Below are positions 36,601 through 46,254 of a stretch of DNA of 64,000 bases, one piece after another (position 1 is the stretch's first letter; each line of letters starts with the position of its first letter). Below the pieces are notes generated by a model that was not told the DNA's origin, ran no database searches, and worked only from the letters and a program-made list of their open reading frames with translations. The position numbers and the translations under genes are program-made. The DNA comes from an uncultured Bifidobacterium sp. (GTDB taxonomy: Bacteria > Actinomycetota > Actinomycetes > Actinomycetales > Bifidobacteriaceae): the NCBI RefSeq assembly GCF_959020145.1, contig NZ_CAUEQY010000004.1:13433-77432 (forward strand), given 5' to 3'.

Positions 36601-37722
36601 CAGCAAAAACCAAACCTGGCCCCCGAAAACGAGGATGGCGTCGCCACATGGCCCGACCTGCCACACGCGTTCACCCAAGCGGCCATCAGCATCGTCGGCG
36701 CGCAAATCCACCCGGAAGTCCTCACCGGAGAACTATGGAACAAGCTCGCACCATACCTGCGCATGACCTTCGCCGTGGAACAGCAGCTGCCGCCCAACCG
36801 CAAGAACCAGCACGGCAGACGGCACGCGCGAGGCCCCGTCAAAACACTCGGCACCGGCAAATCACTCGTCGAACTGCAACGCAGATTCGCCGAACAAGCC
36901 AAAGCCTCCGCACGCCACATGGTCGAAAAACAAGCCCGAAACGCAGGAGACCAAGGCAAGTTCGTCGAACAAGCCAACCTGCTCAACAAAGCGGGAGCGA
37001 CCACCGAAGCACGCGCCACCATGCTCTGGCAAGGCGCGCTCGACACGCTGCGCCTGCCCGGTGAACGCATCTCCTCACGCTGGCTCGGCACGGAAGCGCT
37101 CATGCTCGCCTCTGCCCCCTACAAGTCCACGAAGGAGCTCACCGAAGACCTGCAGCTGGCAGCCGTCAAACGGCTCCTGCCCAACATCGACCAGCTGCCC
37201 GACGACGAAGCGCTCGCCGACGCAGTGCTCGATGTGCGCGAAGTGTACGAGGACACCGTGTACGCGGTGGCGCATGACGTGATCGCCATACTGAAACGGT
37301 ATGCGGAAGTCGACAAAGCCGTGTCCGGCAAAGCGGACCTGCCACTGCTGAGCGTGCTGCAGTCGATCCGCGAACACATCGCCACACTCGTATACCCCGG
37401 TTTCATCGGCAAGACGCCGCCAGAGGCATTGCCGTCCATCGAACGATACCTGCACGCCGACCTGCTGCGCCTCACCAAGGCGAAAAACGACAAGAACCGC
37501 GACGTGCGATGGGCTTGGGAAGCCAACGAAGCCAAACAACTTGCCGACAAGGCCGTGGCGAAAGCACAACGTGAACCAGCCGGCCCACGCCACGAAACAC
37601 TGATGAAGCAGGCGGAAACCGTACGTTGGATGCTGGAGGAATTCTACGTGTCCCTGTGGGCACAGGAACTCGGCACGCCGAAACCGATCAGCCTGCAACG
37701 CATCAAAAAGGCGATCGCCTAG
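33613..37722 (+). CDS. hrpA: ATP-dependent RNA helicase HrpA
   Basis: GQTGSGKTTQLPK, DEAHERS, SAT, QRSGRCGR, C-terminal WMLEEFYVSLWAQELGT. Confidence 0.96.
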   Translation: MKFEYPSELPVSAARSDIAEAVRSSQVVIVSGQTGSGKTTQLPKILLELGRGSHGRQIVHTQPRRLAARTVAERIASEMGVTLGEEVGYQVRFTDESSPKTRLRVVTDGILLAQIQRDPKLMQYDTIIIDEAHERSLNIDFLLGYLTALLPKRRDLKLVITSATIDSVKFQEHFEHALHTKVPVIEVSGRTYPVQIVYEPLGTAPALMRSVPGFETGAMPGDADYEALSAAPDGRDGRDSRDTNVDMPTAVARACAELVIHSTHDRGPRDILVFASGERDIHDFENALRRHYGPRAADMRRPDAIEIVPLFARLSSKEQHKVFEPHTHQRIVIATNVAETSLTVPGIRYVVDPGTARISRYSKTAKVQRLPIEPISQASANQRSGRCGRIADGIAIRLYSREDFETRPEFTEPEILRTSLGAVVLHMLSVGVARTAKDVTDFGFIDPPDMKAVSDGFNELTELKAVARKHGEVVLTHTGRLLARIPIDVRLGRMVIEAAKSTTPNTLAAVLVVVAFLSLQDPRERPDENREEADRIHNRYADPTSDFLTALNLWDRVFQADGEPSNSALRRICKTEYLSWLRMRQWKDLVAQLREMCQEFKFKLGEPIPVSRPPLEIRQLPLNQQAAHSLCCSWDAQGIHTSMLSGLLSMMGMQVTREPKASDFAGLKGAARARAMKRAQKMAKNDYQGARGTHFALFPASAVAKSTPQWVMSTELVETSRLWARYSAQIDPAWAEPLAGALTRTTYADPHWSGSRGSAVASAKVLLYGLPIVQDRTVQWGRINPLEARDFLIRQGLVEGDIQQRFPYDDFVMRNRDILEDAADDASRTRQVAQTVGDEDLFDFYNAIIPNTVTSVADLAKWWKTRHDEQPDLLDFDPDKVERLADSDSVSLDDYPDHWHTLGTDGSPIDLRLSYIYDPHDPNDGVTVHVPLKALSRLTPEQFTWNVPGLLDELIIGMIKSLPKTLRVQFVPAPDTARRIRAWIDERYPDLPGSGSQQKPNLAPENEDGVATWPDLPHAFTQAAISIVGAQIHPEVLTGELWNKLAPYLRMTFAVEQQLPPNRKNQHGRRHARGPVKTLGTGKSLVELQRRFAEQAKASARHMVEKQARNAGDQGKFVEQANLLNKAGATTEARATMLWQGALDTLRLPGERISSRWLGTEALMLASAPYKSTKELTEDLQLAAVKRLLPNIDQLPDDEALADAVLDVREVYEDTVYAVAHDVIAILKRYAEVDKAVSGKADLPLLSVLQSIREHIATLVYPGFIGKTPPEALPSIERYLHADLLRLTKAKNDKNRDVRWAWEANEAKQLADKAVAKAQREPAGPRHETLMKQAETVRWMLEEFYVSLWAQELGTPKPISLQRIKKAIA

Positions 37723-37745: not shown

Positions 37746-37794
37746 TTGTTCCGTTTCTTCAAACCCGTCAACGCTTCTTGAAGAAACGGAACAA
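37746..37794. terminator. 17-bp hairpin at the hrpA/island junction, overlapping the permease 3' end
   Basis: TTGTTCCGTTTCTTCAA (37746-37762) / TTGAAGAAACGGAACAA (37778-37794). Confidence 0.6.
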
Positions 37795-38844
37795 CTGCGA
37801 TTCACGAATCAACAACCCCACCAATAGACTCGCCACCATGACACCGGCGAACACAGCCAACGGCGTGCGCACCGCAGCCGCCAACACCGCCACCCAATCG
37901 GACCGGCTCATCCGCACCGCATACGCCAACAACAACGCACACGAAGCAAACGTAGCCAGCCCGGCCCAAACACCGGTCTCCACACCAATACCCAGCAACT
38001 GCGCACCCTTCGACTGCCCCGAATGCAACGCACCCGCATACTCCAACCTACGCCGGCGCACACCAAACACACCAACCAACACGCCAATCGCCAACCCCAC
38101 CCACGGCATCCACCGCGTCGAACGATTCAGATACGACGCACGCGCGTCATAATGCGCATCAAACCCCTTATTCACCTGCGTCACACCCGCATTCGACGAG
38201 CCGGAACCCGCCACCAACGTGGCATACAGCAGATTTTCCATCTGTCCATCGGCCGGCCACCGCTTGACCCAACATTCGTTGAACGTCGAGGCGCTCGCCG
38301 ACACCGGCACGATGAACGCGTAGGCGAAACGCGTGTCACGCCCATCGTTCGGCCAGTCGAACACACCAGCCACACGTGTGGTGCCTTCGCGTGTCCGCAA
38401 TGCGCTGCCCACGGCGAGCCCGAAGTCCTTGGCCACGTCGCGCGGCACCCATACGCCGGACACGTCGGCCTTGGCATTGCCGGCGATCAGCCGGATCATA
38501 CCAGGCGTCACGTCATACGATGAGATGTCCTTGCCGGGTGTCGCGAGTGGCACGACCTGTTCGCCGGCACGCATCGCACCAGCCAAGGTTCCCGTCATTC
38601 CATCGCCGGCGTCGGACAACCGGTCGCATGCGGTGCCATCCACCGTTCCACCGACGATGGCGTTGACGTCAACGTACGCGTTGATGCGCTGCACGGCCTG
38701 CGATTCCAAGTCAATCACGGTCATCGCCTCATATCCGCCCAGCAGCGTTCCGGAGAGCAGCACTGCGAGGAACATAGCGAACGCGCGGCTCACGCCCGAA
38801 CCGATGTTGCGCAGCGCTTCGGAAAGCACCGATCCAAGTCTCAT
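37768..38844 (-). CDS. ABC transporter permease (FtsX/MacB-like topology)
   Basis: One N-terminal TM, a large extracellular loop, three C-terminal TMs, RRRLEYAGALHSGQS motif. Last gene of the ABC operon. Confidence 0.7.
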   Translation of the reverse strand: MRLGSVLSEALRNIGSGVSRAFAMFLAVLLSGTLLGGYEAMTVIDLESQAVQRINAYVDVNAIVGGTVDGTACDRLSDAGDGMTGTLAGAMRAGEQVVPLATPGKDISSYDVTPGMIRLIAGNAKADVSGVWVPRDVAKDFGLAVGSALRTREGTTRVAGVFDWPNDGRDTRFAYAFIVPVSASASTFNECWVKRWPADGQMENLLYATLVAGSGSSNAGVTQVNKGFDAHYDARASYLNRSTRWMPWVGLAIGVLVGVFGVRRRRLEYAGALHSGQSKGAQLLGIGVETGVWAGLATFASCALLLAYAVRMSRSDWVAVLAAAVRTPLAVFAGVMVASLLVGLLIRESQLFRFFKKR

Positions 38845-38925
38845 ATACGCTCCCTTATTGGCGGTTTCATGCGGTTTTCACACTGTTTGGCGAAGCTCAA
38901 CGGTTTCTTGCGATTCATCCGCCGA

Positions 38926-40014
38926 CTATTTGCAAACCAGCCCGTTGAGCCCGCTGCCGATTTCGACGTTGGCGATCGCGGACACGTCGGCATCCTGCGT
39001 CTGCACCAGACTCACGCCCAGCTCGCTGCCCACAATCGTCACCTTCGCCGGCGTATTAGACGCATTGTGGGATTTTGGTACGATGCAGCCGCTGCTGCCG
39101 TCGATGCCAAACACCGCTCCCGCCGGCACACGCAGCACCTGTAATGGTTCCTTCAATGCCACGGTGGCATCGAGACCGGCCTTTTTGGTCTGCATGTCCA
39201 TGGACTGGAACGTCTCGCTTGCCGACACATTACGCAGGAATTCGGCGTCGGTGATTTCCGTGCTATCGGCCGGCAATATTCCATTGACGCCATACATGCT
39301 TATGGTGCGATCCTGTCCTACCGCCGCGCCGTTTTTCACGGTGAGTTTCGTCAACGCTCCCGGTATTTTTCCGATTGCCGTACCGCCCGTCACCATGGAA
39401 CCGGTGGTGGCCGTCCACTCGTCGACCGCGACTGCGTTTTCAGGAATCCACATGGTGTCGGCAAGCGCAAGCGTGCCGTCGGAGGGGTTGCCGTTGTCGT
39501 TCATGAGTTGCCGCCAGCCGTCGGATGTTGCCCACCAGTAGGTGTCGGAACCGGCCACGCTGTTGTATCCGAGTCGGCTCAGCTCGTTGTTCAGTGCGAG
39601 CACGTCGTCGCCCTTGTCTCCGGTTTTGAGGTCACGGTATAGGGGTGTGGCAGTGTTCAAGGCCACGACCACGCGGTCGTTGACTTTGTATGCGCCTTTG
39701 CCGGAGGCGAGTCCGTCTGCGGACCAGTCGGCGGTGACGGTGCCGTTGGCGTTGCCGAGAAGATTACGTTCGGTGGAGATAGTGGGCACAACCGTCACTT
39801 GCTGGCTGCCGGAGTATTCCTGCACGCTGGCTGGCGCGGTGGTCGTCTCCCCTGCCGAGCCGAGCAATGCCGGCGCGCGATCCGGCAGGAGCAGCGCGCA
39901 TGCTCCCACGGACACGCAGATGGCGGTTGCCACGGCGAGCAGGCTCCAAGCCCATGCGAGTCGTCCGCGTCCGGCACCGTTCGTCACGGCTGTGGCGTTA
40001 TGTTTCTTTCCCAT
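38926..40014 (-). CDS. Membrane-fusion/adaptor-like protein with peptidoglycan-binding domain
   Basis: N-terminal TM, PLYRDLKTGDKGDDVLALNNELSRLGY (PG_binding_1-like), C-terminal VPAGAV...VTIVG...GL typical of adaptor proteins. Confidence 0.75.
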   Translation of the reverse strand: MGKKHNATAVTNGAGRGRLAWAWSLLAVATAICVSVGACALLLPDRAPALLGSAGETTTAPASVQEYSGSQQVTVVPTISTERNLLGNANGTVTADWSADGLASGKGAYKVNDRVVVALNTATPLYRDLKTGDKGDDVLALNNELSRLGYNSVAGSDTYWWATSDGWRQLMNDNGNPSDGTLALADTMWIPENAVAVDEWTATTGSMVTGGTAIGKIPGALTKLTVKNGAAVGQDRTISMYGVNGILPADSTEITDAEFLRNVSASETFQSMDMQTKKAGLDATVALKEPLQVLRVPAGAVFGIDGSSGCIVPKSHNASNTPAKVTIVGSELGVSLVQTQDADVSAIANVEIGSGLNGLVCK

Positions 40015-40036
40015 GAGTCGATGCCTTTCTATTCGT

Positions 40037-40678
40037 CTATTCTTCCAATTCCGGTTCCTGCGATTTGCTGCCGCCTGGCGCGTAGTCGGCGAGGTCGAGC
40101 ACACGGTCGCAGGCGTCGCGGGTGTCGGGATCGTGTGTGGCCACGAGCACGATCATGCCTTGGCCGGAAAGGTTGTTCAGCACATGGCTGACGGAATGCG
40201 CGGTGCGCGTATCCAATTGAGCGGTCGGCTCGTCCACGAGCAGCATGTCGGGTTTGGAGCAGACGGCGCGTGCCAGCATGAGACGTTGCGCCTCGCCGCC
40301 GGAGAGGTCGGAGAACCGGCGGTCGGCCGCGTATTCGAGGTCGAACAGCCCCATGGCTTCCAAGGCTTTGAGCTCCGCTTCCTTGCGCCGCATGCCTTTG
40401 GCGAGCAGCGGGAACACCACGTGGTCGAGCGCGGTGCGTTCCGCCACACCGTACGGGTTTTGAAACACCCATCCCACACGGTTCACGCCTTCACGGGTTA
40501 CGGTTCCGGCATATGGTTTCTCCCAACCGGCGAGAATCGACAGCAATGTCGATTTACCACAACCGGATGGTCCGCATACCGCGATGGTGGAGCCAGGTTC
40601 CGCCACGAAATCAAGATGCTCGAACAGCAGGTCTGTCCCCGGGAACCGGTGGGCCAGCCCTTCCACAACCACTCGCAT
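40037..40678 (-). CDS. ABC transporter ATP-binding protein (LolD/MacB type)
   Basis: GPSGCGKS, VFQ, LSGGEAQR, DEPTAQLD, VATHD. Confidence 0.93.
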   Translation of the reverse strand: MRVVVEGLAHRFPGTDLLFEHLDFVAEPGSTIAVCGPSGCGKSTLLSILAGWEKPYAGTVTREGVNRVGWVFQNPYGVAERTALDHVVFPLLAKGMRRKEAELKALEAMGLFDLEYAADRRFSDLSGGEAQRLMLARAVCSKPDMLLVDEPTAQLDTRTAHSVSHVLNNLSGQGMIVLVATHDPDTRDACDRVLDLADYAPGGSKSQEPELEE

Positions 40679-40700
40679 ATGAGCCCCTTCGCGCATCAGA

Positions 40701-41417
40701 CTACTTCAGCGGATACCAGACCGTCTCATCCGAGGCGGTCACGTTCACTCCGGCCGTCACCAAGCAGGTCAGCGCCTTCCTGTTATCGCGCAGTCCTGCG
40801 CTTTCTCCGGATTCCAAATCCTTCTCCAGCTTATCGGCGGTGTAGTCTTTGGGCTTTATGCCTTCCTTGCGCAGACAGTCGGCCGCCACCTCCTTGTCAT
40901 TGAGCAGCAGCTTCGGATTGCCCAACTGGAGCCTGTACACGGTGTTGATATCCGTGACATGCAGCATACTGCAGGATGTCAGATCGTCATTGAGTTTGCG
41001 GATCGCCTCTTTGCTGGCACCATCGGTGTTGTACGAGGGCAGAGCGTAAATGCCGTTGTCGTACTTGTCGAACGTCGGCTCGGCATAGCCTTTGTCTATG
41101 ATGCACTGCTTGTAATCCGCCCATGCGCGTTCGTAGTCGGCCTGACTCACCTTTCCGCCCGAAGCGGCCTTCTCCAGTGCAGACTTCTGCTGATCGGATA
41201 TTTTGCCGCCGTCGGAATCCAACAACGATCGCGCATAATCCTTCAGCGACGACGCGATTCGTTCACCCTGTTGCGATGATTGACCCTGCTGGGATTGACG
41301 CTCCCGTCGCGAGCTTTCTTTCAGTGCCCCGCAGCCCGTGCAGCCGACAAGCAAAGCGAGACAGCATATGACGGCAATAGCTTTGCCACGCATGCCCGTT
41401 TTCCTCGACATCGTCAT
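40701..41417 (-). CDS. Lipoprotein with four conserved Cys (paralog 1)
   Basis: Basic N-region, hydrophobic stretch, LVGCTGC lipobox. GAGGGG RBS. Aligns by eye with 43275-44015. Confidence 0.8.
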   Translation of the reverse strand: MTMSRKTGMRGKAIAVICCLALLVGCTGCGALKESSRRERQSQQGQSSQQGERIASSLKDYARSLLDSDGGKISDQQKSALEKAASGGKVSQADYERAWADYKQCIIDKGYAEPTFDKYDNGIYALPSYNTDGASKEAIRKLNDDLTSCSMLHVTDINTVYRLQLGNPKLLLNDKEVAADCLRKEGIKPKDYTADKLEKDLESGESAGLRDNRKALTCLVTAGVNVTASDETVWYPLK

Positions 41418-41505
41418 CAGCCCCCTCACAAACGACGCAGCCGTCAGGCCGCCATGGCCCGCTTTACCCCTATTCTATACCCCCAAGACCTGCCGTCACG
41501 CGCGG

Positions 41506-41524
41506 CATACCCAATATGGGTATG
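41506..41524. promoter_or_regulatory. Putative response-regulator binding palindrome (copy 1) upstream of the ABC operon
   Basis: CATACCCA-ATA-TGGGTATG. Minus-strand -10 TAGAAT at 41477-41472. Confidence 0.7.
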
Positions 41525-41595
41525 TGGAACCAGGTGTTCCCCAGCATCATCCACCGGCTCGTTGCATTTACCCCGTTCTCCGCGCCGGAAAGCCA

Positions 41596-42083
41596 TCAGT
41601 CAAACGGAATGCGCGCGTGGAACATCCATATGCCGTTCTCGCAATCGGTGGAAAGACTTCCTCCGATATGCTCGATTTCAGCCGCGAACTGTCTGAGACC
41701 ATGGCCACCGGGCAGGCTGCCGGAATGCCGGGCACCCATATCATTCACTTCGGTGATTTCCAAGGAATGCGCCTTTACCAGAACCGACACCTCGTACTTG
41801 CCTCCGGAAGGCGCATGACGCGAAACGTTCGCGTACACCTCGCCAATCAACCGGCCGATCACATCCTTATGATAGGCATACGGACGCGCGCACGGGACCA
41901 GAAATAGGCGAGACCGGTCAGCATAATCTGCATGACGGTAAACATCAATGCCATTGGCGAACCGGGGTAACACACCGCCTCATAGACCATCAGAAGTTCG
42001 CACGTCATGATGGCCGCAAGACGGAACGGATGTTTGATTCGCGGCATATCCGGCCACCGGAGCTCTTTGTTCTTTCCGGTCAT
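41596..42083 (-). pseudogene. Sensor histidine kinase with internal deletion and frameshift
   Basis: An N-terminal frame with two hydrophobic segments (ATG 42083, stop 41859) is out of frame with a HATPase C-terminus (EVYANVSRHA N-box, GGHGL G-box, stop 41596). No H-box region is present. Confidence 0.8.
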
Positions 42084-42084
42084 G

Positions 42085-42741
42085 TCAGCGCTCGTTCCCA
42101 TGTTTCAACCATGTGATGATGGCTTGCCGTTGCGTACGGCAGTTCAGTCGTTTGACGATGTTCTGCATGTGCTTGCGCACAGTGGCGATGGATATGCCGA
42201 GTCGTTCGGCTATCTCTCCATCCGTCAGATATTCGTTCGCGCACAGGTTCATGATGGTTTCTTGCGTGTTGGTGAGCGTGGACTCCGCTCGAGCATCGCA
42301 TTTCAGCCTCGCGTAAGCCGCCATCGGAGTTTCAAAACCGGGCAGGAAACATCCTGAAAGGACACGGGAGACGGCTTGTTCGAGCTGTGTCTCGTCACCT
42401 TTACCGACAAGCCCTTGCGCGCCAGCCGCCGCCAGCGGCACGCGATACCGGTTCAGACTGAAGCTGGTCATGCCGAGAATCGGCGTGGAACAGTCTGTCA
42501 GCCGCATGCGACGGCAGACTTCCGGGCCTTGCATACCTTCCAACGACATATCAAGCAGCACAAGAGCATATTGGTCGGCATTTGATGCAAACAATTCCAA
42601 AGCCTCAACTCCGCTGGTAGCCGAATCGACGATACCCACCGCCGGAAGAATCCGCTTGAATAGGTCGGCCAGCGCTTCGATGACGATTTTGTCATCGTCA
42701 ACAAGCAATATCTTCGGACCACCAACCGTTTTCCCCGTCAT
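42085..42741 (-). CDS. NarL/LuxR-family response regulator
   Basis: ILLVDDD, LVLLDM (phospho-Asp), MTS, GLVGK. HTH EIAERLGISIATVRKHMQNI. AAGGAG RBS. Confidence 0.92.
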   Translation of the reverse strand: MTGKTVGGPKILLVDDDKIVIEALADLFKRILPAVGIVDSATSGVEALELFASNADQYALVLLDMSLEGMQGPEVCRRMRLTDCSTPILGMTSFSLNRYRVPLAAAGAQGLVGKGDETQLEQAVSRVLSGCFLPGFETPMAAYARLKCDARAESTLTNTQETIMNLCANEYLTDGEIAERLGISIATVRKHMQNIVKRLNCRTQRQAIITWLKHGNER

Positions 42742-42811
42742 GGTACAACGCTCCTTCCCCCGGGAAACATCCCCCTGCCGCAATACAATACATCATTTCA
42801 TCACCACCCCT

Positions 42812-42826
42812 TACTCATATTGAGTA
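42812..42826. promoter_or_regulatory. Putative response-regulator binding palindrome (copy 2) upstream of the secreted peptide operon
   Basis: TACTCA-TAT-TGAGTA, 13/15 identical to the reverse complement of copy 1. Confidence 0.7.
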
Positions 42827-42912
42827 GATCGTTCGCAATAACCCCGTAAAACAACTCATATCATATGAATCACCGGGCCAAGGCAGTTCGATATGATGAT
42901 GAAAGGTGGACG

Positions 42913-43260
42913 ATGATGTCCTGGATGAAACACAATAAATTAGCGAAAACAATTGCCGCATCAATAGCAGCTGTCGGAATATGCTTCGGCGCCACTGCCG
43001 TGGCGAGTGCTGCATGTCGGTACCCTGTCACCAGTGGCTCATATAGCGAAGGCCCTTATCATGTTGAATGGAGTGTGCAACCGACAAGTTCATATGTAAG
43101 GACTCAAACCGATTACCATAACCAATATTGCTACGCACAGCAAGATAGGACGCAACATTCGCAGACAAGCAGAGCGCTCGCTAAGCAACATTGCTCCGCC
43201 TCAGTCAGCGGAGGCTCTTCATTGACTCAAAATGATTATGTTGAATATTATCAGTATTAG
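42913..43260 (+). CDS. Small Sec-secreted protein, candidate bacteriocin or signal (lactococcin-972-like resemblance, unverified)
   Basis: GAAAGG RBS. Signal peptide ending ASA (about 33 aa), mature chain about 82 aa, Ser/Gln/Tyr-rich, 3 Cys, ends YVEYYQY. Visibly lower GC. Confidence 0.7.
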   Translation: MMSWMKHNKLAKTIAASIAAVGICFGATAVASAACRYPVTSGSYSEGPYHVEWSVQPTSSYVRTQTDYHNQYCYAQQDRTQHSQTSRALAKQHCSASVSGGSSLTQNDYVEYYQY

Positions 43261-43274
43261 GAAGCTCGATCACC

Positions 43275-44015
43275 ATGCGGAATGGAATAGTCCATGTGTT
43301 GAGAAACATCACCACATGCTTGGTAGGCATAACTCTTATCGGCTGCGCGGGCTGTGGGGTGGCTGTCGACCAGCAGGATACGAAACAGCCGACCGGAAGT
43401 GTCGGCAGCGACACATCCAAAGCCAAAATCGCGAATTCGATACCGGATTACATCGATTTCCTTCTTGATTTGGACGCCAAACCCGATACCAAATATCCCA
43501 TGAGTGACGCACAGAAAACGATTCTGAAACGTTCCAGGAAGTCGGGAAGCGTGTCGAAACCGGATTACGAACTCGCCTGGTCGAATTACAAGCAGTGCGT
43601 GACCGGCTATGGGTATACGACACCTGTGCTCAAGCAGTTCTCCAATGGCCTGTACATGATCGCCATGCGCGACACGACAGGCATGAGCGACCAGCAGCGC
43701 AGGAAGTTCAACGAGGATGAGAACAAATGCTATAACACTGAAGTCATTGCGGTGACCGGCGTGTACCAGATGCAGATCGGCAATCCCGGCATGCTTTCCG
43801 ATGGCGACCAGGCCATGGTCGATTGCCTGCATAAGGCCGGTATCGTGCCGAAAAACTACGACAAGGAAGCGTACAAGAAGGATTTGGACGCGCACGCCAA
43901 AAACCAGCCCACCACTGTGGATTTCTCGAATGCCGAAATGCAGAGCTGCTGGGTGGCGAACGGCGCGTCGTTCGGGGACGTCAATGACACCGATCAGTGG
44001 AAGCCGCTCGGCTGA
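43275..44015 (+). CDS. Lipoprotein with four conserved Cys (paralog 2)
   Basis: LIGCAGC lipobox. AWSNYKQC..GY, QIGNP, DCLHKAG, WKPLG match paralog 1. Confidence 0.8.
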   Translation: MRNGIVHVLRNITTCLVGITLIGCAGCGVAVDQQDTKQPTGSVGSDTSKAKIANSIPDYIDFLLDLDAKPDTKYPMSDAQKTILKRSRKSGSVSKPDYELAWSNYKQCVTGYGYTTPVLKQFSNGLYMIAMRDTTGMSDQQRRKFNEDENKCYNTEVIAVTGVYQMQIGNPGMLSDGDQAMVDCLHKAGIVPKNYDKEAYKKDLDAHAKNQPTTVDFSNAEMQSCWVANGASFGDVNDTDQWKPLG

Positions 44016-44030
44016 CCACCGTGTTCCCCG

Positions 44031-45236
44031 TCATATATCAGCATAGAAGTCTCGTTCCTGCGCGACGAACGGGCGCAGGAACGTGGTGATGGCGATGGCG
44101 CATACCAGGAACAGCGCGCCGACGGGGCCGAGCCACATCAGTCCGAAATGGCCGTTGATTAGACCTCCGACCGCGGAACCGATCGCGATGCCGATGTTGA
44201 ACGACATGGAGTTGAGCGACGCGGCCAGGTTCAACGATCCGGGATGCGACTGCGAGGCGACGTCCATATACAGCACTTGGGACGCGGAATTTTGCAGGTA
44301 CATGAACATGCCGAGCACCACCAGCAGCAGCGCGCCGTATACCGGTACCCAATGCGCCACGACAAGCGACGCCATGAGCACCGCATGGGCGCAGTAGATG
44401 GGACGGATGTGCGTCAGCGGCTCCACTCCCCTGCCCCGGTCCGCGAGCTTGCCGCCATACAGGTTGCTCCACAGGCAGGCCGCGCCGAAGATCACCAGTC
44501 CGACACTCAAGTACTGTTCAGGCACATGCACTTCATCGCGCATGATCGGAGTCAGGTATGTGTAGAACACGTAGCTGGCGGCCGCGCCGCACACCACGTC
44601 GAGCACGCCCAACTGGATGCGGCGGTCGAAGAACAGGCGGAACTGCGGCAGGAATCCGATCTTCACGATGTGGCTGTTGCGCGGCAGCACCATGACCATG
44701 CCGATGATGAGAACGATGGTGAGCACATTGATCATATGGAACGCCCAACGCCAACCGAACGTGTTGGCCACCCATGTGCCGACCGGCACGCCCACCACGG
44801 ATGCGATGGAGAAGCCGGAGAACACCCATGCGATGAATTTCGTACGGAATCTGTCCGTTGTCACATCGGGCGCGTACGTCATAGCCACAGCCACCAACGT
44901 TCCGGATACCAAGGCGATCATGATGCGCGCCACCACCAGAACCGCGTAGTTGGGCGCGAACGCGCATAGGATGTTGCCTGCGAGGAATATGCCGATCAGC
45001 GTCAGATGCGTAGCGAATCGCGGGAACCGTGCCGACAGCGCGGATCCGAGCGGGGTGACGGGCGCATACACGAAGGCGAACAGGGACACCAGATTGCCGA
45101 CCGTCACCTCCGATATCTTCAGATCGGCTGCGATGTCGGGCAGGATGCCCACCACGATGAATTCACTCATGCCAAGCATGAAACTCGAGGCGATCAGGAT
45201 AAGCACCGGAAGATTGAAGAACCGTTCCTTTGCCAT
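44031..45236 (-). CDS. MFS efflux transporter (DHA1/PbuE-like)
   Basis: About 12 TMs. FMLGMSEFIVVGILPDIA, GVPVGT, FNIGIAIGSAVGG. Confidence 0.88.
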   Translation of the reverse strand: MAKERFFNLPVLILIASSFMLGMSEFIVVGILPDIAADLKISEVTVGNLVSLFAFVYAPVTPLGSALSARFPRFATHLTLIGIFLAGNILCAFAPNYAVLVVARIMIALVSGTLVAVAMTYAPDVTTDRFRTKFIAWVFSGFSIASVVGVPVGTWVANTFGWRWAFHMINVLTIVLIIGMVMVLPRNSHIVKIGFLPQFRLFFDRRIQLGVLDVVCGAAASYVFYTYLTPIMRDEVHVPEQYLSVGLVIFGAACLWSNLYGGKLADRGRGVEPLTHIRPIYCAHAVLMASLVVAHWVPVYGALLLVVLGMFMYLQNSASQVLYMDVASQSHPGSLNLAASLNSMSFNIGIAIGSAVGGLINGHFGLMWLGPVGALFLVCAIAITTFLRPFVAQERDFYADI

Positions 45237-45327
45237 GCCGCATCTCCCTTCCACACCGGGACATCAATCGATTGACGTAACCAATCCGAGGCAACATTAT
45301 GCCATGCGCGATACAATATGACGCACG

Positions 45328-46254
45328 ATGACACGCAAGACGAACAGCACGCGCAAAGCACGGAAAACCCGCAATCGCAAGCCCCTCAATCTCAAGAATC
45401 TCCGCACCATGTGGCGGAAGGCGAATCCCATCGCACGCATCGGCATGGTCGCCACCGCGACCGTGGCAGCGATCGCGGCGATCGCCATCATCGTGGGGGC
45501 GGTGCGCTTCATCGGCTGGCGCGTGCAGGTGAACGAGGCGCTCACCGCGCAAAGCCAGTCGCAGTCGCAATACGACTTCAATCCCGGCAACATCATTTCC
45601 GACGGCACGTTCTTCAACGGCAATGCGTTGAGCGAGCAGCAGGTCAGCACCATCATCGAACAGCAGGGCGTGGCCTGCAGTGGCGAACGATGCCTGAAGT
45701 CCATGACGTTCAGCACCGAATCGCAGTCCGCGGACGAATATTGCCAGGCTTATGATGGTGGCCCGAACGAAAGCGCGGCGGCGATTGTCTACAAGGCGGG
45801 CAAGGCATGCGGCATCAGCCAGAAGGTGCTGCTCACCGTGTTGCAAAAGGAGCAGCATCTGCTCACGGCCACCAATCCAAACGATTTCCAATTCAAAGCG
45901 GCGATGGGCCTGAGCTGCCCGGATGATGCGAACTGCGACCCCACCTATGCCGGCTTCTTCAAACAGGTGTACGGCGCGGCCAAACGGTACCAGTACTATC
46001 TTCGGCACGAGGGACGCTACGGCTACCATGCCGGACGGCTCAATTACATCCAGTACAATCCAAATGCCAGCTGCGGCGGCAGCAACGTGTACATCGAGAA
46101 CCGAGCGACCGCGCTGCTGTACATATACACCCCGTATCAGCCGAATGCCGCGGCGCTCGAAGCGGGGGCCGGTGAAGGCGATTCCTGCTCGTCATACGGC
46201 AACCGCAATTTCGCGATTATCTACCATTCGATGTTCGGCAGCCCGCGAGGCTGA
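45328..46254 (+). CDS. Membrane-anchored extracellular Cys-rich protein, possible lysozyme-like peptidoglycan-modifying domain
   Basis: Basic N-terminus, one TM, then FNPGNIISD, SAAAIV..AG.ACGI, LQKEQ, CPDDANC, ATALLYIYTPY, YGNRNF. 8 Cys. Confidence 0.65.
   Translation: MTRKTNSTRKARKTRNRKPLNLKNLRTMWRKANPIARIGMVATATVAAIAAIAIIVGAVRFIGWRVQVNEALTAQSQSQSQYDFNPGNIISDGTFFNGNALSEQQVSTIIEQQGVACSGERCLKSMTFSTESQSADEYCQAYDGGPNESAAAIVYKAGKACGISQKVLLTVLQKEQHLLTATNPNDFQFKAAMGLSCPDDANCDPTYAGFFKQVYGAAKRYQYYLRHEGRYGYHAGRLNYIQYNPNASCGGSNVYIENRATALLYIYTPYQPNAAALEAGAGEGDSCSSYGNRNFAIIYHSMFGSPRG

Follow-up and report, generated by a model that had tools for sequence, protein, structure and literature searches.

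Layout of the locus

The stretch of DNA analysed here (the window, G000:C4) covers 64,000 nucleotides of an uncultured Bifidobacterium sp. whose genome, G000, comprises 83 contigs and 1,969,741 bases. Between the end of hrpA at position 37722 and a major facilitator superfamily (MFS) gene at 44031-45254 lie two divergent operons, and all the parts that a sequence-only reading had named in this interval were found where it had placed them. Operon A, on the minus strand, runs from lipoprotein 1 through an ATP-binding cassette (ABC) ATPase and an adaptor with a single transmembrane (TM) segment to a permease, and operon B, on the plus strand, consists of a small gene with a signal-like N terminus followed by lipoprotein 2. 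A response regulator and the remnant of a kinase, in two out-of-frame pieces, sit between the two operons; the window's copies of all module genes are intact except that of the kinase. The module is real, conserved and polymorphic. We read it, with a probability of about 0.55, as a divergent bacteriocin of the lactococcin 972 (Lcn972) fold with a cognate lipoprotein immunity protein, to which a MacAB-like ABC module and a regulator of the NarL type lend support.

A small protein with a Sec-type leader and a predicted bacteriocin fold

The small gene (42913..43260, plus strand; longest open reading frame [ORF] from 42865) encodes a Sec-type leader, which on inspection of the family alignment has a basic N terminus, a hydrophobic segment and Ala-x-Ala before the conserved domain, and a mature part of 82 residues starting at about 43012. 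The sequence-only reading had called the product a peptide; it is better described as a folded domain of about 82 residues behind a Sec-type leader than as a short peptide. Pfam and NCBIfam gave no family of note, and a PDB sequence search with the profile of the small protein returned nothing meaningful. Profiles of the mature domain define a family with conserved S27, Q44, G67 and D75 and usually two Cys, which has 45 representatives among 1.84 billion proteins. A first iterative search that included the signal peptides drew in PF09683 proteins and unrelated lipoproteins, an artefact that disappeared when only mature domains were used.

A model of the mature domain built from 69 sequences has seven strands and a mean predicted local distance difference test (pLDDT) score of 92.3. 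When it was compared with 48,161 solved chains by VIA, the top match was Formosin D (PDB 9HKJ; Z 8.9, root mean square deviation [rmsd] 3.3, 79 residues aligned), deposited as a lactococcin 972 family bacteriocin, followed by Lcn972 itself (2LGN; Z 8.8, rmsd 2.0, 66 of 66 residues aligned), and the next structure scored Z 5.1. An Atlas language-model search, which we treat as a lead only, also returned Lcn972-named clusters as its first two matches (0.89 and 0.88). Foldseek's weak top rows, with rmsd values of 3.4-6.9, were to designed Ig domains and a toxin of fungal origin, and we dismissed them as generic beta-sandwich matches. The small protein is thus predicted to have the Lcn972 fold, yet it fails the PF09683 sequence test. 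Of the structure and profile checks that had been proposed for it, Foldseek and profile-profile comparison were negative and VIA matched structures of the Lcn972 family; where the sequence-only reading had left the choice between toxin and pheromone, the predicted bacteriocin-like fold favours the toxin.

The resemblance to the Lcn972 family (PF09683; Lcn972, Formosin D, mediterrocin, streptococcin B and bifidococcin 664) extends to a Sec-type leader, a mature part of 65-90 residues, a predicted beta-sandwich that superposes on 2LGN, ABC genes nearby and the retention of immunity-side genes after loss of the structural gene. The window's protein differs in having no PF09683 match, one more strand at the N terminus and a pair of Cys residues, while Lcn972 itself is described as having no Cys (PMC8538875). 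The gene that follows also differs: it encodes a lipoprotein, not the multi-pass DUF1430/TIGR01654 membrane immunity protein described for canonical Lcn972-type clusters (PMC12345188). True PF09683 genes occur in 18 of 151 genomes of the genus. In the 10 of these loci that were fetched, no lipoprotein of the four-Cys family described below was found within 1.5 kb, and of five full-length neighbours that were scanned, four are similar to TIGR01654 or FtsX-type membrane proteins, as in the canonical arrangement.

Pairing with a four-Cys lipoprotein

Lipoprotein 2 (43275..44015, plus strand) lies directly behind the small gene, and lipoprotein 1 (40701..41411, minus strand; longest ORF from 41429) heads the ABC operon. 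The two are 33% identical (E 3e-44), which bears out the proposal that each operon carries one member of the same family. Four Cys are invariant in all 63 aligned members, and a CxxC motif is absent from the family consensus. The model of lipoprotein 2 is all-helical (pLDDT 95.2) and had no Foldseek match at E<=0.001; in VIA it scored at most Z 5.7, with helical bundles to which it is unrelated, and NisI and SpaI were not listed among its fold matches. Residues 137-196 were barely covered in these comparisons, so that a claim of a new fold is not established. The lipoprotein matched no family, a PDB sequence search with its profile gave nothing meaningful, the Atlas returned only unnamed actinobacterial lipoprotein clusters, and source databases label the relatives "hypothetical protein" or "lipoprotein". 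A copy of lipoprotein 2 in locus L209 is 98% identical. Within the family's own sequence hhalign detects a weak repeat (43%). In L193, L195, L196 and L198, where a small gene is lacking, the gene before the same adaptor encodes a weakly related actinobacterial lipoprotein in which a Cys-Met-Arg motif is repeated.

A search of the 151 genus genomes with the small-protein profile matched at 45 places, spread over 26 genomes, when the cut-off was E<=1e-4. At E<=1e-6 there were 39 places in 20 genomes, 38 of them mapped as loci and 1 placed by coordinates, and a lipoprotein gene stood directly downstream in 39 of 39. The six weaker places comprise three with a lipoprotein behind, two that match mostly in the signal peptide and one fragment. 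The pairing is asymmetric: of 104 full-length lipoproteins, 37 are behind a small gene and 67 are not. Nine of the 67 share 94% identity or more with a partnered lipoprotein in another locus, which is expected if toxin genes are lost and immunity is kept. The streptococcin B loci of pneumococci, of which 27.5% are described as immunity-only, show this same pattern, and rewired promoters are also described among them (10.1101/2024.10.01.616058).

The partners have also diverged together. After 10 of 42 small protein-lipoprotein pairs with short or broken members had been dropped, the pairwise identities of the small proteins and of their lipoproteins were correlated across the remaining 32 pairs (r=0.81, reached in 0 of 2000 permutations), so the co-diversification that the sequence-only reading had suggested looking for is present. 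In the 16 pairs that allowed a comparison with the adaptor, the partial correlation was 0.77 for small protein and lipoprotein given the adaptor and 0.22 for small protein and adaptor given the lipoprotein. Mean identity was 31% for the small protein, 37% for the lipoprotein and 53% for the adaptor. At the same chromosomal site in genome G046, the ATPase is 88% and the permease and adaptor are each 72% identical to those of the window, while the lipoprotein is 35% identical and an alignment of the small proteins covers just 42 residues. Charge complementarity between the partners was not found (rho -0.03).

Three alleles of the small protein exist in public assemblies (clusters of 157, 31 and 35). 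They share the leader (28-29 of 32 residues), and their mature parts differ, with 53 of 81 (65%) and 26 of 73 (about 36%) residues identical. Our metagenome scan returned only the window's allele type, so the partners of alleles P0004 and P0005 were not linked. P0006, a cluster of 11, is a natural in-frame fusion of the N-terminal half of the small protein with the C-terminal part of lipoprotein 2 and is likely a deletion product.

Adjacent toxin and immunity genes that vary together, along with arrays of orphan immunity genes, are a general feature of polymorphic toxin systems. The locus resembles them in its adjacent variable pairs, in the conserved leader with a variable mature part and in the occurrence of tandem partnerless lipoproteins, and it differs in that the small protein has neither a delivery domain nor an enzymatic toxin domain. 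Several genomes hold many copies. G030 has eight small-protein matches. G558 (L167-L171) has 15 distant lipoprotein matches, and 6 of the 11 inspected follow variable Cys-containing small ORFs with a near-identical leader; by hhalign these small proteins match neither the window's family nor Lcn972. G283 (L188, L200, L202-L207) has at least eight distant lipoprotein genes, some in tandem and most directly behind different small secreted ORFs, and in G466 and G496 similar small secreted ORFs precede lipoprotein genes, all three genomes being judged by eye.

Distribution of the cluster

The cluster is accessory. At the hrpA end of 13 relatives' loci, the MFS gene follows hrpA directly in seven, the module is present in four, one has neither, and one bears a deletion scar in which the tail of the permease is joined to a cut MFS gene. 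The G+C content is 52-57% at 41001-44000 compared with 53-66% over the window's 1-kb blocks, so the compositional contrast is modest. Relatives of lipoprotein 2 occur in 62 of the 151 genus genomes. A profile of 63 lipoprotein sequences found matches in 44 of 121 genomes of the bacterial family, in 9 of 17 genera, and in 2 of 401 genomes of the phylum, where a broader profile found 12.

We mapped 60 lipoprotein-containing loci, which were picked mostly among the strongest matches and some of which are cut by contig ends. The lipoprotein occurs together with the adaptor and the permease in 38 of them, a regulator plus kinase (or kinase remnant) is present in 30 and the small gene in 33, and all three of these sets are found in 10. 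The order of the module genes is freely shuffled across loci, yet the small gene is followed by the lipoprotein. With these loci and the genus-wide search, the co-occurrence that had been proposed for survey is seen in many genomes.

Some variation lies beside the module. A variable insertion site (window 41553-41578) lies next to palindrome A, described below, and relatives (L021:10135-10991 and several metagenome loci) have 640-860 extra bases there; the L021 insert contains an opposite-strand ORF of about 240 residues with two hydrophobic segments. A second, unrelated lipoprotein gene adjoins the module in four genomes (L031:7494-8213, L032:6059-6751, L051:12955-13647 and L053:11528-12247). 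Beyond the MFS gene, 45328-46254 (plus strand) encodes a 308-residue secreted-type protein with a single TM segment and no Pfam match. It is only about 80% identical in many related contigs whose flanks are at least 95% identical, which suggests allele exchange.

The ABC module

The ATPase (40037..40696, minus strand) matches PF00005 (E 2e-26) and scores 126.6 bits against TIGR03608, below the cut-off of 254.85. The adaptor-like, membrane-anchored protein (38926..40014, minus strand, with the ATG at 40014 taken as its start) has its TM segment at residues 26-44 and no HlyD/MFP family match. The sequence-only reading had given it a peptidoglycan (PG)-binding domain. The Pfam domain was undetected in the window's own copy, but PG_binding_1 is found in 15 of 32 family members and there are weak PDB matches to PG-binding domains; the domain would lie near residues 129-183. 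The 358-residue permease (37768..38844, minus strand) has one N-terminal TM segment, a large outside domain and C-terminal TM segments, a layout like that of MacB/FtsX, and a hydropathy scan called three segments. Among 34 members of its family six match MacB_PCD (best E 3e-4) and one FtsX; the window's copy matches neither of these, nor TIGR01654.

The likeness to MacAB and YknXYZ noted from the sequence holds for the arrangement, since a separate ATPase, permease and adaptor stand in one operon, and is weakly shown at the level of domains and sequences; profiles of the permease and adaptor found no sequence match in the PDB to the structures of YknX, YknZ or Spr069x. A separate ATPase, a permease with a large outside domain and a membrane-anchored adaptor, in the company of a Sec-exported antagonistic protein, are likewise described for YknWXYZ of Bacillus, AS-48EFGH of Enterococcus and Spr0693-0695 of Streptococcus pneumoniae (PMC5985334), although antagonism by the window's protein is a prediction. 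YknXYZ and AS-48EFGH are reported to protect producers from their own peptides (PMC5985334). The window has no membrane protein like YknW or AS-48E, and a lipoprotein heads its operon instead.

The frequent company of lipoprotein, adaptor and permease (38 of the 60 loci) would also suit a lipoprotein that acts as a folding, display or export helper of the ABC/adaptor set, with the small protein as its non-toxic cargo, for example an adhesin or a host-directed protein. Such a role fits the Cys pairs in both partners and the four distant genomes in which a weakly related lipoprotein, with no small gene, precedes the adaptor. However, single genomes hold many different pairs without an ABC module (the eight matches of G030 and the arrays of G558 and G283), and the divergence of the lipoprotein, whose consensus has no CxxC, nearly keeps pace with that of the small protein, as would be unusual in a general chaperone. 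We consider the helper role quite improbable, and under the bacteriocin-immunity reading the ABC/adaptor set would serve defence.

Regulation and the loss of the kinase

Both operons carry the same palindrome upstream, as the sequence-only reading had stated: palindrome A (TACCCA-N3-TGGGTA, 41508..41522), likely a response-regulator site, precedes operon A, and palindrome B (TACTCA-N3-TGAGTA, 42812..42826) lies between the divergent regulator and small gene. TACYCA-N3-TGRGTA occurs exactly twice in the 1,969,741 bases of the genome, as does the looser TACNCA-N3-TGNGTA, which has 20 occurrences when up to one mismatch is allowed. Across the 60 loci, with at most one mismatch, the 47.6 kb upstream of module genes contained 34 sites and the remaining 1,002 kb contained 7, an enrichment of about 100-fold; the motif was taken from the window's two sites, and 5 of the 34 are the sites of the window and its two closest relatives. 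Of 33 distinct sites, 19 have a TTG, as in a -35 element, 4-9 nucleotides away towards the gene, and 3 have one on the far side, a bias that would suit a site for an activator. A promoter-like -35/-10 pair for operon A lies at 41472..41499 (minus strand; 9 of 12 consensus positions) and another in the 3' end of the small gene, just before lipoprotein 2, at 43222..43251 (plus strand; 10 of 12). Both are consensus matches only, and five sites were found at the threshold used compared with 3.3 expected in shuffles.

The response regulator (42085..42741, minus strand) is of the NarL/LuxR type, with a REC domain (PF00072, E 3e-17) and a GerE domain (PF00196, E 9e-10), and we infer that it binds the palindrome. 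The kinase remnant consists of an N-terminal piece (41869..42101, minus strand) and a C-terminal piece (41596..41868, minus strand) with weak MctS/UhpB matches. It is more than degenerate: relative to the intact 397-residue allele of L091, a frameshifting deletion has removed 685 bp at 41868/41869, and with them most TM segments and the His region. Even the intact L091 allele reached no Pfam or NCBIfam family, and it is taken to be a kinase from its motifs, its position and the weak matches of the C-terminal piece. Of the 38 metagenome loci fetched, 34 span the junction, and the deletion is present in 33 of these; in G108 the kinase gene is wholly gone. The autoinduction proposed from the sequence is not supported in the window's strain, given that its kinase is without most of the membrane segments and without the phospho-accepting His region.

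A paralogous regulator-kinase pair on contig C19 of the same genome (L024:8579-10616, minus strand) is intact and has no output genes. Its regulator is 47% identical to the window's, with a nearly identical recognition helix, and orthologues at 50-83% identity occur in G077, G108 and G046. A quick tree of weak support places the C19 regulator among the module regulators, a position that does not in itself show cross-talk. The pair could be a trans-acting partner or the remnant of a former module. A copy of the palindrome with two mismatches lies just past the end of the C19 kinase gene (L024:8481).

Selection, decay and signalling

The mature small protein stays under purifying selection despite the kinase deletion. 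Its ratio of nonsynonymous to synonymous polymorphism (pN/pS) is 0.10, compared with 0.15-0.30 for the other intact module genes, 0.09 for hrpA, and 0.77 and 0.26 for the N- and C-terminal kinase pieces; the difference between the intact genes and the N-terminal piece has Fisher p values of 0.0001-0.02. The polymorphism behind these ratios may predate the deletion. Broken frames were counted in 11 of 37 copies of the small gene, 9 of 30 of lipoprotein 2, 7 of 22 of the adaptor, 5 of 24 of the ATPase, 4 of 35 of the regulator, 3 of 17 of the permease and 1 of 27 of lipoprotein 1. The 1-bp losses are mostly in two-base runs and are concentrated in a few contigs in which the MFS control gene is broken too, so many are likely assembly errors, and after this homopolymer check we no longer count the frameshifts as proof of decay. 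Multi-base deletions and two nonsense changes remain among the broken copies. Assembled contigs from RNA runs cover the module and its flanks alike and have no bearing on expression.

Whatever its former role, the cluster might be a silent relic that has been decaying in this lineage since the kinase was lost. The near-universal kinase deletion and the absence of the gene in G108, the broken frames, with multi-base deletions and nonsense changes among them, the deletion fusion P0006 and the loss of the module at its site in 8 of the 13 relatives' loci all point that way. We nevertheless find this decidedly unlikely, given that pN/pS is 0.10-0.30 for the intact genes and 0.77 for the N-terminal kinase piece, that many of the 1-bp losses are probably assembly errors and that both palindromes are perfect.

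A role in signalling would make the small protein a secreted signal of identity or density and the lipoprotein a receptor that passes it to the membrane-embedded kinase, inducing both operons. Intact kinases of the mapped loci have only two to five predicted TM segments before the His region, which makes an accessory sensor plausible; two-component genes are present in half of the mapped loci; and the allele-matched divergence fits receptor specificity. The net charge of the mature domain, with a mean of +0.6, was also counted in favour. The Lcn972-type proteins of the genus are near-neutral too, however (0 to +1 in five of six), and the solved relatives of the fold are bacteriocins. The small protein is also constrained although 33 of 34 contigs have no working kinase, and 18 of the 33 small-gene loci, some of them cut by contig ends, have no complete two-component pair nearby. 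Signalling is therefore unlikely in our view, and we return to a bacteriocin with its immunity protein as the preferred reading.

A predicted toxin-immunity system

The toxin-immunity reading fits four things: the solved relatives of the predicted fold, which are bacteriocins, the pairing, its asymmetry and the fast joint divergence of the partners. Bacteriocin activity of the small protein is likely, the likeness being one of predicted fold, and several observations count against it. Neither the window's protein nor any of 50 relatives matches PF09683, which has no match anywhere in G000; profile-profile alignment with PF09683 by hhalign gave probabilities of 0.1-2%; the conserved S27, Q44, G67 and D75 differ from the conserved residues of Lcn972-type proteins; and Foldseek found nothing for the model in the PDB or BFVD at E<=0.001. 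A small beta-sandwich can, moreover, be common to proteins of different function. Because the seeds of the small-protein profile came from lipoprotein neighbourhoods, the search is biased towards pairs and free-standing small genes could be under-found, and at the weak fragment in G081 the lipoprotein is absent within 1.5 kb. In 27 of the 60 loci there are lipoproteins, mostly with ABC or two-component genes, and no detected small gene, which may mean that the lipoprotein works chiefly for the transporter or kinase. Linkage alone can explain part of the joint divergence, kin are not independent, and the palindrome is present in only 25 of the 60 loci. Finally, an intact small gene stands beside a lipoprotein 2 with a stop codon in G108 and beside a frameshifted one in 4 of the 38 metagenome loci (L075, L077, L093 and L106), a state that a cell could bear only with a silent operon or with protection by other parts. 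All four frameshifts are, however, losses of a single base from a CC run, and other 1-bp losses occur in three of these loci.

Under the toxin-immunity reading, the leader would be cleaved upon export, likely by Sec, and the mature domain of 82 residues, which probably has one closing disulfide, would be released. It would attack the cell-wall synthesis of related bacteria, by analogy with Lcn972, which is described as binding lipid II (PMC8538875), and the surface lipoprotein would bind and neutralise the cognate allele. Lipoproteins without a small gene, lipoprotein 1 included, might cover the alleles of other strains. The ABC/adaptor set is a predicted second line of defence that would clear bound protein from the membrane surface, as opposed to secreting it, and the NarL-type regulator would likely switch on both operons through the common palindrome. 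With the cognate kinase dead in this lineage, the genes would be expressed at a basal level or under control in trans, for which the intact C19 two-component system is a possible source.

NisI and SpaI are cited as precedents for lipoprotein immunity (PMC8538875), and with NisFEG/SpaFEG and NisRK-type control they share with our locus a lipoprotein, an ABC transporter and a two-component system around an antibacterial protein, here a predicted one. The promoter-like site just before lipoprotein 2, itself only a consensus match, recalls PnisI (PMC8538875). The differences are that the window's protein is unmodified and not a lantibiotic, that the lipoprotein model is all-helical and that the regulator is of the NarL type. 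Our literature search found no account of the small protein-lipoprotein pair or of Formosin D; supplements, such as that of a gut bacteriocin survey (PMC12648112) which might list members, were outside its scope.

A wider reading is possible, although we hold it only tentatively and would sooner bet against it: that the lipoprotein family, with a new fold, is an allele-specific immunity scaffold for many fast-diversifying Sec-secreted beta proteins, forming an undescribed polymorphic antagonism or kin-recognition system of Actinomycetota. The Lcn972-fold family would then be one cargo among several, in keeping with the genomes that have 8-15 copies and with the unrelated-looking small secreted genes in other genera.

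Few bifidobacterial bacteriocins are described as characterised, and bifidococcin 664 is described as a profile-detected Lcn972-type protein of modest activity (10.1101/2022.01.27.477972). Mining by profiles such as PF09683 misses the present small-protein family entirely. The natural series of alleles, the immunity-only strains and the natural allele with an intact kinase are direct material for a test. If the toxin-immunity reading is true, this would be the first lipoprotein-type immunity for the Lcn972 fold that we could trace, on a scaffold without a solved structure. About one in eight genomes of the genus (20 of 151) would then harbour a hidden polymorphic bacteriocin family and 62 of 151 would carry candidate immunity genes, which would matter for how strains compete in the gut and for the compatibility of probiotics.

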